Shown piece after piece: positions 3,517-46,614 of a DNA stretch of 64,000 nucleotides. The position numbers were made by a program, and so were the translations under genes. The notes beneath the pieces are model-generated. The model searched no databases. It saw only the letters and a program-made list of their open reading frames with translations, and was not told the origin of the DNA. Numbering within the stretch: the stretch's first letter is position 1; each line of letters begins with the position of its first letter. This DNA comes from Octopus vulgaris (lineage: Eukaryota): positions 88,536,001 to 88,600,000 of the forward strand of contig OX597814.1 of assembly GCA_951406725.2 (NCBI GenBank), written 5' to 3'.

Positions 3517-4374
3517 TATGACTGTGCATGATTGATGTTTTTTTTTTTTTAAAGCCTGTATTTTTTAGCCATTTGTTGTTTGGCTAATATTAGATACGGT
3601 CGGATTGGATTGCAACGTGAGAGAATACACTTCTTTTTGGGATTGCATTAATTATGATTTATAAATATCAGCTCCAGGAAGTATTTTAGGCATGTTCATA
3701 GGCTATTTCTCGATCCTGTTTACTGAATAAGATTATCGTCACGTTTTATTGGTTCGTAGCAATTTTACGTCATTCAAAATATAATTTGCTTAAAGAGTTG
3801 TTAGAGAAGATTTAATAAACAGTCGTTACGGAAGCAACATTTCATAGTTCTTAGCATACAGAACATCATTGCGGAAGCTTTATTTTTTAATTCTTCGTTG
3901 ATCCTAGTTAATAATTTCAAAAGCTATTTCTGAGAAATTGCTTTAGAATACTATAAATAGCATTTTCTGTTGTTGTTCAGCCCTAATTCAGCTACACTTC
4001 AATAGAAAGTGTTTCACCACTCGTAGTATATATTTGAGTCATTTCAGTAAATGTAACCTCTTTTTTTCTTTCTTTTTCTTTCTCTCTTTCTTTTCTGTAT
4101 TTCTTTTTCTTTCTTTTTCTGTCTTTCTTTTTCTTTCTTTATTTCTTTCTTTCTTTTCCTTTCTTTCTTTCTTTCTTTCTTTCTTTGTCTGTCTGTTTGT
4201 CTCCTCCCTCTCCCTTTTCTCTTTACCCCGCCTCACTAACATAGTACAGTATGATTTGGGCACGATTTGAAATCGATATTATTATATGCAGACATTACTG
4301 TATGCTTCACAACCACGCAGTTTGGGGTTCAGTTTCACTGTATGACACCTTGGGCAAGTGTGTGTGTATCAATA

Positions 4375-7300
4375 TATATGATGATTGGTTTATCTTGACA
4401 GATGATAGCCATCCCATCAACACACAATCACTCCATGAATGAACCCTCAGGTGACTTTTAAGACCAATTGCTGACTGATTGGGTTTAAAACACAAGTAAC
4501 AGATATTCAAGCTTCTTCTATATTTTTGCCCTTTGGAATCTGATTCCGAAGGAATGTTTTTGTGAACTAGCATATGTCTTTCAAGTCCAGATATTGTCTT
4601 ACAAGTTTTGTGACATATGACACAAGTCATAAAAGGCGATTGTTGTTCAAGATTATTAACTACCCGGGCATTTTGATTTTCATGTGACTTCATATGATTC
4701 ACATAACCTGCTTTTGACAACCGAACAGGATCACACATAATACATTTCCAATGTTCACTGTTGGTTTCAGTCCCAATTGTTCCTTTGCGACAGGCCCTTT
4801 TAAGCTCGGACTGCTGAATCGTCTTTTCCTCCTAGGTATTGTAACCAGTCCTAAAAGCACCTCTCCACTTGTTCCGATCTAGAACATCAATTTTCCAATC
4901 ACTTTTGTTCATATCTTGTTTCTTCAGGTTTTCCTTCACACAGTCTTTATACTTTTTTCTCGGCTTATGTTGTGGTCGCTTACCAGAGTTGAGCTCACTA
5001 TACAAAAGATGCTTTGGTAATCGCTCATATTACATTCTGATAACATGCCCAGCCCATCTCATTTGAGCCAAGATAATATGTTGTTCAATCTACAACGTGC
5101 GATGCACAAAACTTCTGTATCTGGTATGAAACATTCCCACTTGACTCCCAAGATACGTCTGAGGCACTTTTGATGAAATCTCTCCAATAAAGAAGTGCAG
5201 TCAATACACACGTTTTAAAGACACTGGTTTTTGCCTGCAGGGAAATACTTTTATCCGCCTATACTCGCTTTTCGAGCTTTCCAAATGCAACACTGCCCTT
5301 CCTTTTTCGATTGTATATCTCTGCACCAAGACCACCAGGGTCCTTCCGAGGTAAACAAAGGTATCAATGACTTCTAACCTTTTTCCATTCACAAAAATGT
5401 TTGGTTCTGAATATGTTTGTCCTGGCGTGGGAGTACATATTACTTTTGCTTTCCCCAAACTAATTGTGAGTCCGAAATGTACACATACAGTGGAAAGTCT
5501 GTCCATTAAGTGTTGCATATCCCCCAACAAATCAGCATCATCAGCATAAAATAATTCTCTAACAAGTATTTTGAAAGTCTTTGCTTTGCAATTAAGTCGG
5601 ATCAGATTAAAAATACGACCTGATGTCCGAAATCTGATTCCAATTCCCCTATTGCAATCCTTGAAAGCATACCAAAACAATGCAGCAAAATATATAGAGA
5701 AAAGTATAGGCGCAGGAATATTTCCCTGGTTGACACTGTTGTCCACCGAAAATTCATGAGATAGCTCACCATTAAAGACTGCCTGAACTTTCATGTTTTT
5801 GTGTAGTTCCTTAAAGATGCTCACAAAATGTGTTGGGCAACCAAGTTTGCATAAAGCAATCCACATTGCCTCCCTGTTTACCGTATCAAATGCCTTAATT
5901 AAATCTATGAAAACCCGGTAGAGTGGTATTTGTTCCTCTAAGCCACAATATCCCAACCTTTTCTGCCTCGAGGCACCCTTGCCAAGCCTTTTAGAAATCC
6001 ACGGCACTCCTATTAGAAAATCTAATATGACAGTTGTTTTTTTTATTCAACATCAATATAACAAAGCCTTGTCCTTGGATAATAACATCTGCGTAAGAAA
6101 ACTATGTTCCTGGAATTGATAATAAAATGTTCTTCATTTCACCAATGTTGATATAATAGGCATAAAATAGATGATAATGCAAAAATTTAATAGACAACAA
6201 TACAAAGTATAAGATGACAATAGTATTTATTGTTAAAATAGTATCAAAATGCATTTTTGACATTAAATGATCAATCATGATACCACATACGTATGTATAT
6301 TTCGCGGCACCCCTCGGTTGATCTCATGGTACCCCAGGGTGCCGCGACACACCGGTTGGAAACCTGTGCTCTAAGCATTTCTCCCGAACCTGCTTCGTGG
6401 AAAATATCAGGTCCATTGTTCCTTGCTCAGGTCTGAAACCACACGGTTCTTCAAGAATCACATGTGGACACACATTCTCAACGAGATGATCTAACATGAT
6501 ACTTGAAAGTATCTTCCCGGTATGTGCTAGGAGAGTTATCCCTCTAGAATTACCACACACTGGTTTTGGGCCCTTACCCTTGTATACAGAGATTAGAATG
6601 CCGTTTAAACTATAAAAACTTTTAATGTCTTCCCTGTCATAGGCCGTCTGAACTTCGTCAGACAAATTTCTCCACCAAGTGTCTTTAAGCCTCCTGAGTT
6701 CCTTTTGCAAGTCTGATTTCTGAGACTTGTACAACTTTTCGAGTTGCACTTTGTTCTTTATGTTTGGGTCAAGAAGCTTTTCATGAATGGAACTATTTGT
6801 TGCTATAAGCTTATTTATCCCCTTATCATTGGGATCAAACCAGTCTCGGTGCTGTCTCCTCTTAAACCCTAACACCTCTGATCCCATTTTATATATTCCA
6901 TCCCCAAAAGATTGCCATGAACCATCAGAGTGAACGTTGCTGCATCTCTCCTGAAATAACTGCAAAACTTGTGATTATTTTAGTTGCTCTACATAAATTT
7001 TCTTTCGTACTCGTACACCTTCACAACGAATCTTCTTGCGGACCATGAACTTGAACTTTTAGCCCTAACCAGTTTGTGATCAGTATCTCAATCAGTACTT
7101 CGTAATAGCCCGAGACTGCACAAATCTTGTAATTCAGCTTTCCGAGTTAATACAAAGTCAATCATGTGACCTTGCTTTGATCTTAGGTGAATCCAAGTAG
7201 CTTTATGCTTCAACTTATGATGAAGGAAAGTATTCCCAACAACTATCCCTAGCTCACAGCACATTTGTAGCAGACGCAACCCATTGTTGTTCACCTTTCC

Positions 7301-7870
7301 CATTCCGTAACGCCCAAGTACATTCCAAGCACCATAGGTTCTACCAACACGTGCATTAAAGTCACCAAACCCAACCAACTTCTCATTCAAAGAGACTAAC
7401 AGAATACTTCTTTTAAACTCCTCATACAATGCATGGATATTTTTCTCACTAGTTGAAAGTGTAAGAGCATAGAGAAAACAGTTACAAAACGTCTACAAGA
7501 CAGAAGAATCCGGAGTTTCATTATGCGTTTGTTTATGCTTTGTCAAATTTGAATTCTAAGTCTTTTACCAAATCACTTCTTATTGAAAACCCAACACCAC
7601 CTTCCTTTTTTCTCCCTTCGGCTTCCCAACCCCAAATGATGTGAAACCTGCTACTTTTTCAACAAGATGATCTTTATCTGAACATCTTGCTTCAGAAAGA
7701 GCTGCAATATCAACATTAAGACGTCTTAGCTCCTTAGTTACAAGAGCCGCCCTTCTTTCAGGCCTATCTGTTCGATCTAAAAGGGTTCTCACATTCCAAC
7801 AAGCTAGGTTAAAAGAAACCTTATTCCTCGCATACTTGTTATCATTGTTTATATTAATTCTTTGCTCATT
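4375..7870 (-). mobile_element. Degenerate RTE (BovB-like) LINE: AP endonuclease, reverse transcriptase and three C-terminal C2H2 fingers
   Basis: APE motifs WNVRTL, DIAALSE, GDFNARVG and HMIDFVL. RT motifs RGITLL, GFRP, FIDLIKAFDTV, QGNIPAP.LF, YADD and FVYLG. Many stops and frameshifts plus an internal deletion. The 5' UTR may extend to ~8580. Confidence 0.93.
5944..6368. mobile_element. hAT MITE inserted in the RT of the RTE LINE
   Basis: Perfect 8-bp TSD CTCTAAGC (5936-5943, 6369-6376). TIRs CACAATATCCCAACC / GGTTGGAAACCTGTG match at 11/15. Removing the insert restores the frame REKCLEEQIPLY. Confidence 0.9.
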
Positions 7871-8885
7871 CCTGCTAAATTGAACCACCGTTAATCTCAG
7901 TAAACTAACCAACGGAGAAAAGACACAAATTTTAGTGCCACTTTCTAGCACATTCCCAGTATATATACATGTGAGTACTTTTCTCCTTAAAAGGGCTGCT
8001 CAAACAGGATTCTCCACCGAAAACAGCTCCTGTCCATGAAAACATGTTAGCGATATTAAGATAAGACCCCTGCCGCCTTATGTGCAGCTTTGTAACTGTA
8101 TGCTTCCAACCGGTCAAGTCTGCATACGTCACCACGCCTCTATCGCCATGGGACTTTTGAAAATAGATCATTGTACGATGATGGTGTTTTGTCGGGGACA
8201 TCAGTACTTCATTGGATTTCAATGATAAACGATTGTACAACACTTTTGCCACGCTCTGGGTCAAAATAGTAGATTCTAGTGACAAGCAAAGCAAGATGAC
8301 TAGTACTAAGTTGACTGTAGGTTTTATATCGGAGTATCTGCTCTTAGGCTTTTCCTCAAAAAGAGACTGCAAGCCATCAGTGGTAAATCAATTTGAATTC
8401 TCTCCTATACTGGTTGTCCTAATCACAGCTGCGTTTCAAAACAGGAGCCAAATCTGCTCCCATCAAACAGTCATGGCTTTGATAGGGCAGCCAATTAAGG
8501 GGACGTAATTACTATAACCAGGTTTTATGTCATAGTGTCCTTCTAGAAGAGTTGACTTCACCACGGCTAACGAGCCTCATCTACGCCAAACACACACAGA
8601 AACAATATATACATATGTACAAATACACACACACACACACATCTTTCAAGAATGTAATTGCGTAAAGCCAGAACAATGCGAGAAAGTACAAAGTAAACTA
8701 CAAAAGGAAAAGAAAACAGACGAAGTCTGAATTTTACCTTGTATTTCCATATTTCGGGGTGAGAAGTACAAGGTAAAACTTCAACTTTGTTCTGTTTTCT
8801 TTTCCTTTTGTAATTTTTTTTACTTTGTACTACACAACTACATTCTTTAATGTTGTACCTCACAATGTCTCACCAAAACTATCTC

Positions 8886-16579: not shown

Positions 16580-17215
16580 ATAGAACCCACAATATGGTAG
16601 AAGCCATAGCCACTCATAATAAAAAGGAGTACTGGTGGAATGTCTCAGTGAAGACCACAATAAAATGTAAGCACAAGAGAGATGATATAATAATTTGAGA
16701 CAGAGAAGAGAAACTGTGCACATTTGTGGAAATTAGCTGCCCAGCAGATGTTAACATAATGCTGAAGATCAGTGAAAAAGAGAATACCTATGCTGAACTA
16801 TTGAGAAATCTGCAGTTACTCTATCCAGATTATAAGTTCAGGTTTATACCTGTAATTATTGGGGCCCTGGGATATATAACACACTGCCTAAATACCAATC
16901 TTGAGAAATTAGACTTCTCAAAACCAGAAAAGAGAAAGTTAATTCGAAGACTACAGATCCAATCCATCACTGAACCTGTAAAAATCTATCATTTAAATAT
17001 ATATGAGCATGTCTAGATATGCAACTATATGCATGAGAATACATACATGAAGCAAACATACAAATATGCACATATACATATATACATACATACAAACAAA
17101 ATACCTAGTTGTTGCTATAGAAATTCCAATGAAGGAGCCTTGGATCTAGGTTAGAAACCGGCTCTTTATTGGTAAGAAACATTGAAATAAAACTGAACAA
17201 TCACATACATGCGTA
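16580..17215 (+). mobile_element. 3' end of an R4/Dong-like non-LTR retrotransposon (restriction-like endonuclease and 3' UTR)
   Basis: EYWWNVSVKTTIKCKHKRDDIII*DREEKLCTFVEISCP...EKENTYAEL...IPVIIGALG fits the RLE pattern HNRPDI..(D/E)...K..Y..L..P...GALG. Confidence 0.8.
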
Positions 17216-26472: not shown

Positions 26473-26523
<51 letters not shown>

Positions 26524-26582
26524 GAAATATTAAAATTACTAAGTCTCTCTAAAGGAGATTACGGCAGCGTTACTGGAAATTA

Positions 26583-26996
26583 ATAGTTATCGCCATACTA
26601 ATATGGCAGTCTTATAAATATAAGACTAAAGCTGTCGCTGATTAGCTCCATGTGACCAACGCCTCAAGCTAGCTATTTGACACACAAACTGCGTCCATTA
26701 TAAACCTTCGAACAGGGGAGGTCAGCCGCTTCATCCTGCCAGTAAGACAGCTGCAGACATGTTTCAGGGTATTTGCCCTTTATCAATTGATAAAGGGCAT
26801 TGATAAAGGGCAAATACCCTGAAACATGTCTGCAGCTGTCTTACTGGCAGGATGAAGCGGCTGACCTCCCCTGTTCGAAGGTTTATAATGGACGCAGTTT
26901 GTGTGTCAAATAGCTAGCTTGAGGCGTTGGTCACATGGAGCTAATCAGCGACAGCTTTAGTCTTATATTTATAAGACTGCCATATTAGTATGGCGA

Positions 26997-27003
<7 letters not shown>
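26583..27003. repeat. Perfect 204-bp inverted repeat (fold-back Penelope-like pLTR pair)
   Basis: Arms 26583-26786 and 26800-27003 are exact reverse complements by eye. The centre carries an extra TTGATAAAGGGCA. Confidence 0.95.
26797..26833 (+). ncRNA. Minimal type I hammerhead with U3-A8 core variant, mirrored on the - strand in the left arm
   Basis: GCA-TTGATAA-AGGG(CAAATA)CCCT-GAAA-CATGTC-TGC, with predicted GUC cleavage after 26830. Confidence 0.7.
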
Positions 27004-44146: not shown

Positions 44147-44950
44147 CACTTTGACCGACCAGTCCGTCAGGCGTCCATTTGACACCGCTGGTCACAGCAC
44201 GCTGTCCACTCCTCTCTGGAACGCGCCTTTCTCATCCACGTGATCCCAATCGTCCTCTTGAAATCGTCACTCCACCGTCGTGGAGGTCTTCCGGGTGGTC
44301 TTTTCCGCTCACGCGGGTACCACTCGACAACTGCGTGCGTCCACCGATTATCGGTGAGCCGGGCGACGTGTCCAGCCCATCTATACTTGCTGCGAGTATA
44401 CTCTGCGATGACATCTCTCACGCCGGACTTCTTTCTGATGATCTTGCTATTTATGTGCTCTCTCAACGAGATACCAAGCATTGACCTTTCCATGGCTCTT
44501 TGAGCCGTTATCAGTCTTTGCTCTTCTCTCTTTGTGGTAGCCCATGTTTCACTACCATATAACATTGCAGGCAGAACTGCACTGTTAATGAGGTTAGCGC
44601 GGGTGGTCCTGTCCAACCTTCCCTTGAGCACATCCCTTATGCCATTGAACGCCTTCCATCCGGCCCTTACTCTCCGTGAGATCTCCTTTTTGATATCCCG
44701 GCACATATTTACTTTCTATCCCAGGTAGACATATTCTCTCACCTCCTCTATTTCATCACTGCCGATCACCATTCGACCTGTTGGTACGTTGTCTGACCGC
44801 ATGAACTTTGTTTTCATGCGGTTCATCTTGAGACCTACTGCAGAACTTTTGATGTCGAGCTCCGTCAGCATGGTCTGAAGCCGATCCATGTTTTCAGCGA
44901 TGAGTACGATGTCGTCAGCGAAACGGAGGTGAGTGAGGAGCTCGCCATTG
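44147..44950 (-). mobile_element. 5'-truncated, relatively young RTE-clade LINE (RT C-terminal half)
   Basis: NGELLTHLRFADDIVLI...GLKMN..KTK...YVYLG*...VLPAMLYGSETW...WAGHVAR..DNRW...GRPPRRWSD. Only one in-frame stop (~44716), and GC-richer than its flanks. Confidence 0.93.
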
Positions 44951-45172: not shown

Positions 45173-45901
45173 TTGATTTGATTTGATTTTTCCAGTTTCA
45201 GCTTATGAGCTGTGGCCATGCTGGGGCACCGCCTAATAATAATAATGGTTTCAAATTTTGCCACAAGACCAGCAATTTTCTGGGGGAGGGATGAGTCGAT
45301 CACATTGACTCCAGTGTTCATCTAGTACTTATTTTATCGACCCCAAAAGGATGAAAAGCAAACTCAACCTCAGCGGAATTTGAACTCAGAACGGAGCGAT
45401 GAAGGAAATGCATTTCGCCCAGCGTATAAAGATTCAGCCTACTCGCAACAGTTACTGAAAGAAAGCAATTATTAATGGCTTTACCGTCTGGAAATTTCTT
45501 TATAAATCTATGTTCCAAGAAATTTCCTGTAATTTCGATTTCTGAAGTTTATTGAATATCTGAATTACAAATTTTTCACAAATTTAAATATTCGTTACAT
45601 TCACTGCGGAGTATATTTTAATGTTTGATGTTCATTTGCAACAGACTCTCTCTCTCTCTCTCTCTCTCTCGTCAGTATTTTTATTAATGGTTATTTAATA
45701 TATATAAATTTCAAGTTTTTTTTCTATTTGAAAAACCCACAGTTTATTCTGTATACGTAACGTAAAAAAATATTTATTGTATGAATGAATGTTATTAAAC
45801 AAAATAGCTGTATAACTTTGAGGCTTATGATGCGAGGCACAATTTCAAGAATATTGGTTTCTGGAGTTTGTTAAATAAATATTTTTGATGTTACCAACAT
45901 A

Positions 45902-46326
45902 ATATGGCAGTCCCAGGAAAGGAAGAATGTTACAGCTATTTAGCCCTAAGAAACACCGTTTCTAGTTGGCTACGCGACACAAGTGTTCTGTGTCCTTAAG
46001 CTTTCAAACAAGGGAGATAAGCACATCCATCCAGCAAAGCCAGCACCCAGAGACTAGTTTCAGGGTAATTGCTTTTCATCAGTCTGGAGTGGCTTGCAGT
46101 AACAGCACGATAAAGTGACATCGAGCAAGGCCAAGCTACTCCAGACTGATGAAGAGCAAATACCCTGAAACTAGTCTCTGAGTGCTGGCTTTGTTGGGTA
46201 GAGGTGCTTATCTCCCCTGTTTGAAAGCTTAAGGACAGAGAACGCTTGTGTGGCGTAACCAACAAGAAACGGTGTTTCTTGGGGCTAAATAACAGTAACA
46301 TTCTTCCCTTTCCAGGGACTACATAT
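45902..46326. repeat. Imperfect ~195-bp inverted repeat (older fold-back Penelope-like pLTR pair)
   Basis: Arms 45902-46096 and 46132-46326 with a 35-bp spacer and roughly one mismatch per ten bases. Shares ATATGGCAGTC, AACAGGGGAG and TTTCAGGGTA.TTGC motifs with 26583-27003. Confidence 0.92.
46138..46183 (+). ncRNA. Minimal type I hammerhead ribozyme, with a more decayed mirror copy on the - strand at ~46045-46090
   Basis: ACTCCAGA-CTGATGA(46146-46152)-AGAG(CAAATA)CCCT-GAAA-CTAGTC-TCTGAGT, with predicted GUC cleavage after 46176. Confidence 0.8.
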
Positions 46327-46614
46327 AGACGCAAATGGAAAACAAAACAAACAACACAAAGAACGACCCCTCATCAGTTGTTGGCTGTTTTTCTAGTCTC
46401 GTATTTCGAGTATTTAACAACAATATACGCTTTCGATAAAACAGTTGCTCACTCAAAGCAAATTAAATAAAATTTGGGATTTTGCGGAGGGTCAAAATAG
46501 GTAACACAAGCAGGACAGTGAAAAAAAAAATGGTACGCATTTAAACGATCTAAGGTCTATTTTTCAGCATATTGGCACAGAAAATTTCTTTTACCCTTAT
46601 TTATAATTTTTTTG

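Follow-up and report, generated by a model that had tools for sequence, protein, structure and literature searches.

Two hammerhead-bearing repeat copies joined head to head in an octopus contig: a probable Penelope-like element (PLE)-type insertion

A short palindrome that carries two hammerhead ribozyme cores raises the question of what its symmetry records: a replicating unit bounded by its own ribozymes, a fold-back transposon, a later rearrangement, or the scar of a reverse-transcribed insertion. We addressed this question in a 64-kb window (the whole stretch of DNA that was analysed), which is animal-like, repeat-rich DNA with LINE remnants and with SINEs that we take to be octopus-type. 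Elsewhere in the window lie a broken LINE on the minus strand (4307–7999) with APE endonuclease, RT, and C2H2 zinc-finger frames (Pfam PF03372, PF00078, and PF13894) and further non-LTR-like fragments at 44167–44715 and 16699–17016, for which no Pfam match was obtained. The palindrome itself spans about 430 bases. Its arms, at 45918–46096 and 46132–46310, are 90% complementary and are separated by a gap of 35 nt; allowing gaps extends them to 45909 and 46320, for a total of 170 matched positions, 11 transitions, 7 transversions, and a single gap. These data confirm a preliminary description of the locus, made from its letters, as an inverted repeat with two outward-pointing hammerhead cores near its centre. 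Folded as one hairpin, the whole element reaches a predicted −318.7 kcal/mol (z = −35), and the left arm folded as a circle gives no clear rod.

We aligned public contigs over 45680–46610 at 80% likeness, using four runs with four organism labels, and the hammerhead repeat family was high-copy in all four. In run X8, which has a different organism label, a 162-nt contig spans the arm junction (45982–46143) with 5 differences and no gap. The initial view that the palindrome is not a read artefact is thus borne out: an assembly artefact is excluded, and the insertion is common to a second organism. The central bin has a much lower depth than the bins on either side (1,529 versus 9,702 and 55,064 in run X1; 336 versus 6,533 and 13,371 in run X8), indicating that the joined form has not been multiplied. 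No RNA run was listed among the sequencing runs that contain the sequence; run X20, guessed to be RNA, contributed 609 family contigs and provides no evidence on expression. The GC content of the family is 44–47%, and the 64-kb window holds no family copies besides the four arms discussed here.

The contigs also define where each arm begins and ends (Table 1). Past 46320, contigs (27 from run X6 and 37 from X8) continue through a terminal hairpin into an AC-rich stretch and then into TCACT, the reverse complement of 46114–46118, and three joints that go back from 46118 to 45900, 45895, or 45891 contain filler letters that fit this 3′ continuation of the family. The continuation and the joints together identify 46097–46118 as family sequence that normally follows the 3′ end. 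Because the same segment precedes the ribozyme in the left arm, it marks a head-to-tail junction, with a unit length of 234–235 nt plus whatever the left arm lacks, and the three joints suggest a retrozyme-like head-to-tail unit of 235–250 nt. Neither a tandem array of this unit nor a circle was seen in the window or in the contigs. The continuity of the 22-nt segment into the ribozyme was seen at this locus alone, and it would suit either a retrozyme or a pLTR with a tail. An exact 8-nt complement exists between 46097–46104 and 46293–46300, the latter just upstream of the 3′ hairpin, and through it the 22-nt segment could close a long-range stem in an intact unit.

On the other side of the junction, 46117–46131 is right-arm sequence and completes an extended helix I. 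The 35 bp previously taken for a spacer are the unshared 5′ inner ends of the two arms, 22 nt from the left and 15 nt from the right, overlapping by 2 nt. At its outer end, the left arm follows the family continuation to about 45889, roughly 20 nt past the equivalent end of the right arm. The element is therefore asymmetric and begins before 45902, the start originally assigned to it; on the right, 46321–46326 may belong to the arm too.

Table 1. Coordinates of the palindrome, its ribozyme cores, its flanks, and the related palindrome in the window.
Feature	Position	Strand	Evidence
Left flank: AT-rich (24% GC), moderately repeated DNA	45712..45888	.	Composition and contigs
Left arm: antisense repeat copy, 3′ end outward, 230 nt, about one full family unit	45889..46118	-	Alignment; inner end from joints 46118>45900/45895/45891
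One-sided 3′ extension of left arm, with small terminal hairpin 45892-45909; the hairpin is also found at sister-element ends	45889..45909	-	Folding and family continuation
Type I hammerhead core of the left arm, cut predicted after 46052 (minus strand), with 2/4 helix II pairs	46052..46082	-	Descriptor
Inner 22 nt of left arm: head-to-tail junction inside the arm; elsewhere in the family follows the arm 3′ end	46097..46118	-	Contig loose ends and joints
Arm junction, 2-nt overlap (GA)	46117..46118	.	Inferred from arm limits in public contigs
Right arm: sense copy, 3′ end outward, without terminal hairpin, about 204 nt	46117..46320	+	Alignment; 4 of the 32 contig pieces listed start at 46117; loose ends behind 46320
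Helix I with long extension, right arm, using the right part of the supposed spacer	46119..46200	+	Folding
Type I hammerhead core of the right arm, cut predicted after 46176, with 3/4 helix II pairs and ACUAGU as palindromic helix III	46146..46176	+	Descriptor
Right flank: a different, far more abundant repeat, its left side cut at the element boundary	46327..46528	.	Contig depth and loose ends
Sister palindrome from a related family, with identical arms of 205 nt, the U3-A8 variant of the core, and ACAUGU as helix III	26583..27003	.	Inverted-repeat scan, descriptor, covariation

Both arms carry the CUGANGA ... GAAA ... UH core in type I order, and the two cores lie 63 nt apart and are directed outward. 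A generic descriptor, consisting of the core, at least 2 of 4 helix II pairs, a palindromic helix III, and at least 3 helix I pairs, found 3 matches in the 64-kb window (2 here and 1 in the sister element), whereas 200 shuffles averaged 0.065 matches and never exceeded 1. Around the cut site, helix I is paired at 6 of 6 positions in the left arm and at 5 of 6 in the right arm, which has one C-A, and the family majority shows 6 of 6 Watson-Crick pairs. Neither arm retains an intact 4-bp helix II, and the family-majority letters and the sister element each pair at 4 of 4 positions. Because the majority letters restore helices I and II, the family ribozyme is canonical in type and the two copies at this locus are decayed; the label "canonical" first given to these hammerheads therefore holds for the helices of the family majority and not for the copies themselves. 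The palindromic string ACUAGU of helix III is predicted to form a 6-bp intermolecular duplex of −4.8 kcal/mol, and Cervera and de la Pena 2014 (PMC4209133) associate a palindromic helix III with the form that acts as a dimer.

Folding yielded significant structure only in the right arm including its 5′ extension, where 46119–46136 pairs with 46184–46200 and lengthens helix I (z = −3.17 versus −0.07 for the left-arm equivalent); 59-nt arm pieces folded alone showed no significant structure (z = −0.7 and −1.1). We measured covariation over six rows, namely three arms from the window and three from an analogue family introduced below. In this set, 85% of cells are paired, a value that 0 of 500 shuffles equalled, and 5 of 10 pairs change on both sides, including the core pair C3-G8, which becomes U3-A8, and all three inner helix I pairs. 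Since the rows are few and related, and since the analogue pairs helix II in another register, this covariation is indicative only. Rfam returned no hammerhead family up to E = 1 for the window or up to E = 10 for 471 nt; its matches were hairpins and microsatellites under their gathering scores.

The locus had been likened to the palindrome at 26583–27003 and interpreted as an older copy of the same element. The two do share motifs, but apart from a 13-nt motif close to the 3′ end they are alike only at 69% along 88 nt, indicating two related families rather than an older and a younger copy of one. The arms of the sister start at −32 and −34 relative to the cut site, and its left arm lacks the 5′ strand of helix I. 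It sits in a compound (TA)n/(TACA)n microsatellite (26520–26582). A 62-nt stretch of unique sequence separates the left (TA)n run from the left arm of the sister, has no counterpart on the right, and may be the one-sided tail of the element. In the sister centre (26787–26799), a perfect fold-back precedes a tandem duplication of 13 nt in which a GCA microhomology with helix I is reused; the arrangement looks like short snap-back synthesis ahead of end joining. A nucleotide motif common to both hammerhead families lies 30–50 nt past the cut (46186–46228 and 26860–26885). Part of it looks like a B box of RNA polymerase III, and upstream lies a string that looks like an A box. A short peptide likeness between the two families revealed no codon pattern by eye and was rejected.

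The position of the fold-back relative to the ribozyme bears on the proposal that integration yields an inverted, ribozyme-delimited dimer. At this locus, the arms extend past the predicted cut site to positions 45–60 nt upstream of it (their shared parts start at −45 and the right arm at −60). Among the joints listed from the contigs (15 of 64 rows and 12 of 23 rows), we counted 8 other distinct head-to-head joints, 1 apparent tail-to-tail joint (46251>45962), and 1 inversion of unclear polarity (46133/46283), which was left out of the head-to-head count. Three "opposite strands" joints (45958/46251, 46013/46259, and 46047/46183) were taken as remapping between the inverted copies and were not counted. 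The palindromic form is thus a recurring property of the family, as had been suggested, but the inner ends of the 8 listed joints are scattered from −40 to +130 around the cut rather than fixed at it; in 6 of the 8 the sense arm begins downstream of the cut, and none keeps two cores. Integration as an inverted dimer is consistent with these observations, and delimitation by the ribozyme is not. The joints derive from contigs at 80% likeness, with filler letters that move two breakpoints by 16–29 nt, and the lists are biased towards short arms because pairs with both arms beyond the reference cannot appear. Some short centres may be later deletions, for which loci L002 and L011 (below) provide a case.

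These data also bear on whether a ribozyme-delimited palindrome, with one active hammerhead per strand, is itself the transposing or replicating entity. In its favour, the fold-back of either palindrome in the window lies no more than about 60 nt from the cut, and each keeps both cores. Against it, the arms are not bounded by the cut site, none of the 8 further head-to-head joints listed retains two cores, the depth at the centre is low, neither arm has an unbroken helix II, and a full hairpin would block both ribozymes. We consider this entity very improbable. Judged from its sequence, the ribozyme is a passenger at this locus, with a damaged helix II and a fold-back point that it does not set.

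A family-specific pattern matched 0 metagenome loci, and a looser hammerhead pattern matched 14 metagenome loci and 1 viral locus. We treated the viral match as chance, given its helix II with 2 of 4 pairs and its non-palindromic helix III, and dropped L003, L004, L007, L009, L010, and L014, which lacked helix pairing in the register tested or showed no kinship. The other 8 of the 14 contigs represent 6 independent loci of one hammerhead family, unrelated to that of the palindrome, in animal-like DNA. At 4 of these 6 loci the analogue copies stand head to head. Relative to the cut, the arm with the extension ends at +100 and its partner between +62 and +68; the extension, about 34 nt, is confined to that one arm, and the inner ends lie from −357 to +28. 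An inverted, truncated copy with a tail on one side is the PLE pattern, and the analogue conforms to it, with a fold-back point that is not tied to the ribozyme. L002 (1901–2145) and L011/L015 (1902–2386) share flanks and differ at the centre, which is full in one form and deleted in the other, evidence that a palindrome can change at its centre once it has been inserted. Among the analogue loci, with frames listed for 7 and compared with Pfam for 2, none yielded a recognisable PLE frame. Three of the dropped contigs, which are GC-richer, hold related core matches (L003 148–178, L010 2001–2031, and L004 65–95); two of these are near-identical and have the palindromic helix III string, and all three are unpaired in the register examined and unrelated to the animal families.

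The arms also retain information about their common source. They share 8 letters that differ from the family majority (majority from the 40 of 105 rows listed), the helix II defect included, and the 18 sites at which they differ from one another divide into 7 right-derived, 6 left-derived, and 5 unlisted. Shared non-majority letters together with evenly distributed private differences fit a single template or source locus followed by about 5% drift per arm, although a minor subfamily or gene conversion could mimic the shared letters. The palindrome might instead have arisen after insertion, by inverted duplication or by recombination or repair between neighbouring family copies. A high copy number supplies substrates for such events, and the L002 and L011 forms of the analogue document change at a palindrome centre after insertion. 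However, both outer ends lie in the 3′ end region of the family, the inversion joints listed comprise 8 head-to-head versus 1 tail-to-tail, the two arms have the 8 non-majority letters in common, and 4 of 6 analogue loci show the same polarity with a one-sided tail. An origin after insertion is improbable on this evidence.

No coding capacity was detected in the element, in agreement with the preliminary description: every sense frame, three in each arm, meets a stop within about 40 codons, and a 124-aa stop-to-stop frame over the palindrome centre has no Pfam match. Long inverted arms, a size of about 430 bp, and this non-coding character would also suit a MITE, a DNA transposon of the fold-back type, if its long TIRs contained a hammerhead-like string by chance. 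Yet no TSD of at least 5 nt was found at the palindrome ends, where the only repeats are 4-mers away from the ends, and the ends are asymmetric by about 20 nt. Furthermore, the copies are not uniform, with variable junctions and low central depth, and the family exhibits head-to-tail joints and compensatory changes in its ribozyme helices. We agree with the earlier judgement that this is not a TIR DNA transposon, and the chance that it is a MITE after all appears minute. The repeat that forms the right flank has 10–20 times the depth of the hammerhead family in public contigs (approximate values) and no further copy in the 64-kb window.

Arkhipova et al. 2013 (PMC3846280) have described inverted pLTRs in a head-to-head arrangement, joined at microhomologies and with or without a tail, and Craig et al. 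2021 (PMC8557442) have described inverted 5′-truncated copies with a one-sided tail in PLE insertions. Like these units, the locus has head-to-head copies with 3′ ends outward, unequal inner ends, a short junction overlap, a one-sided 3′ extension, a hammerhead in the repeat, and an AT-rich flank; a TSD is optional in such units. It differs in having no RT or GIY-YIG frame, and its extension is about 20 nt versus the published 30–40-nt tails; the right end adjoins another repeat, and later trimming is possible. No PLE reading frame was found at the locus or among 8 window frames compared with Pfam. In its inversion and its ribozymes, and in part in its tail, the locus resembles a PLE-type insertion unit. 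It is neither an autonomous PLE nor a MITE, and its status as a retrozyme is putative. The 2014 study by Cervera and de la Pena (PMC4209133) further reports dual hammerheads on opposite strands, 100–700 bp apart, in truncated PLEs, and the occurrence of the U3-A8 core in PLE remnants. The locus likewise has two opposite-strand type I motifs with a palindromic helix III, and U3-A8 is found in the sister element, whereas the cores here are only 63 nt apart and have canonical 6/4-bp helices in place of the minimal PLE form.

Metazoan non-LTR retrozymes, for which dependence on PLEs has been proposed by Cervera and de la Pena 2020 (PMC7229834) and also in a preprint by Li, Clavereau and Pollet 2026 (10.64898/2026.07.22.740005), constitute a second point of comparison. 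Shared features are a canonical type I hammerhead, a non-coding unit of 170–400 nt, evidence of a head-to-tail junction, high copy number, a GC content of about 45%, and the proposed PLE dependence. The locus is an inverted pair, whereas the retrozyme forms described in the available parts of these sources are the tandem array and the solo copy. Our literature search found no published description of a cephalopod hammerhead family or of head-to-head retrozymes, with Repbase, Dfam, and supplements lying outside its scope, and a 2026 Octopus repeat annotation (PMC13282606) mentions Penelope elements and, in the main-text passages covered, no ribozyme.

Considering all of the above, we regard it as likely that two 5′-shortened repeat copies were joined head to head in a dead-end insertion by a PLE RT and endonuclease, a reading to which we assign a probability of about 0.8. 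On purely structural grounds, and by analogy with the published units, a PLE is the likely mobilising enzyme. The source RNA is a separate matter. We slightly favour a retrozyme-type unit, likely non-coding and about 235–250 nt long. The other part of the overall probability, and the smaller one, falls to a sub-case of the same explanation, in which the arms are pLTR stubs of an autonomous PLE, the 22-nt piece is a scrap of tail acquired by template jump, and no separate retrozyme family exists. The size of the arms fits published pLTRs of 193–218 bp (PMC3846280), some family contigs reach 100–640 nt upstream of the arm, and depth across the 22-nt segment is low. Conversely, the ribozyme has the canonical 6-bp helix I and 4-bp helix II that Cervera and de la Pena tie to retrozymes, and is not the minimal PLE hammerhead with a bulged 5′ base and G10.1-C11.1; the sense frames of the arms all close early; and the unit length derived from the joints fits retrozyme monomers. 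We therefore rate pLTR stubs as rather unlikely. The stronger proposal, that the family is a true retrozyme (a non-coding circular-RNA unit of 235–250 nt) whose copies bear a PLE integration signature, stands at somewhat less than an even chance.

The Poseidon PLE of Anolis (PAc), studied in vitro by Frangieh et al. 2024 (PMC11167929), suggests how such an insertion could form. The PAc protein cuts and extends both strands and initiates at two internal sites, and unprocessed RNA is its main substrate (PMC11167929). In PAc, reverse transcription starts at two sites at an AC-rich stem-loop downstream of the hammerhead and uses uncleaved RNA as template; similarly, the arms here end at a hairpin that is followed by AC-rich sequence, and they cross the cut site. 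There are also differences from PAc as described in that source, in that its ORF starts inside the hammerhead while the frames here close within about 40 codons, and in that the 3′ ends lie about 145–165 nt past the cut here versus about 85–90 nt in PAc.

The observed geometry, in which both outer ends are 3′ ends, the inner ends are unequal, and the arms cross the cut site, is compatible with the following scheme. A PLE endonuclease would first cut AT-rich DNA, after which reverse transcription would begin at two internal positions of the RNA, about 20 nt apart and close to the conserved 3′ hairpin, and this offset would give rise to the one-sided extension. Because the cDNA extends across the cut site, and the left arm across a head-to-tail junction, the RNA that was copied would have been uncleaved, multimeric, or circular and would stem from a single source locus. 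For the second arm there are two possible origins, priming at the opposite end of the target or snap-back synthesis on the first cDNA, and 2 nt of microhomology would have served to join the inner ends. The presence in each arm of inner sequence not found in its partner points to two-ended priming, provided that the left arm did not lose about 15 nt afterwards. The two arms would subsequently have drifted by about 5% each. A read-through transcript would be expected to fold as one long hairpin, a double-stranded RNA in which both cores are blocked; with a damaged helix II in each arm and a predicted hairpin of this stability sequestering the cores, the insertion product is probably inert.

As a single locus, this palindrome is of little weight, being a decayed insertion scar of a type already described. 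It nevertheless flags two hammerhead repeat families for which we found no description in cephalopod-type genomes. If such palindromes are transcribed, they may represent long double-stranded RNA substrates for editing or silencing. How head-to-head inversions form is an open question in both the pLTR study (PMC3846280) and the Anolis study (PMC11167929). Because the whole insertion is just 430 nt, a genome-wide set of junctions would map the starts and stops of PLE RT and test the inversion mechanism, and because each arm holds inner sequence that the other lacks, insertions this small could decide between two-ended priming and snap-back or antisense self-priming. The same collection of junctions would also test whether PLEs move retrozymes. 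In the available parts of the cited literature, PLE mobilisation of animal retrozymes rests so far on co-occurrence and phylogeny; a retrozyme family with a PLE signature, if true, would be direct structural evidence that PLEs mobilise animal retrozymes.
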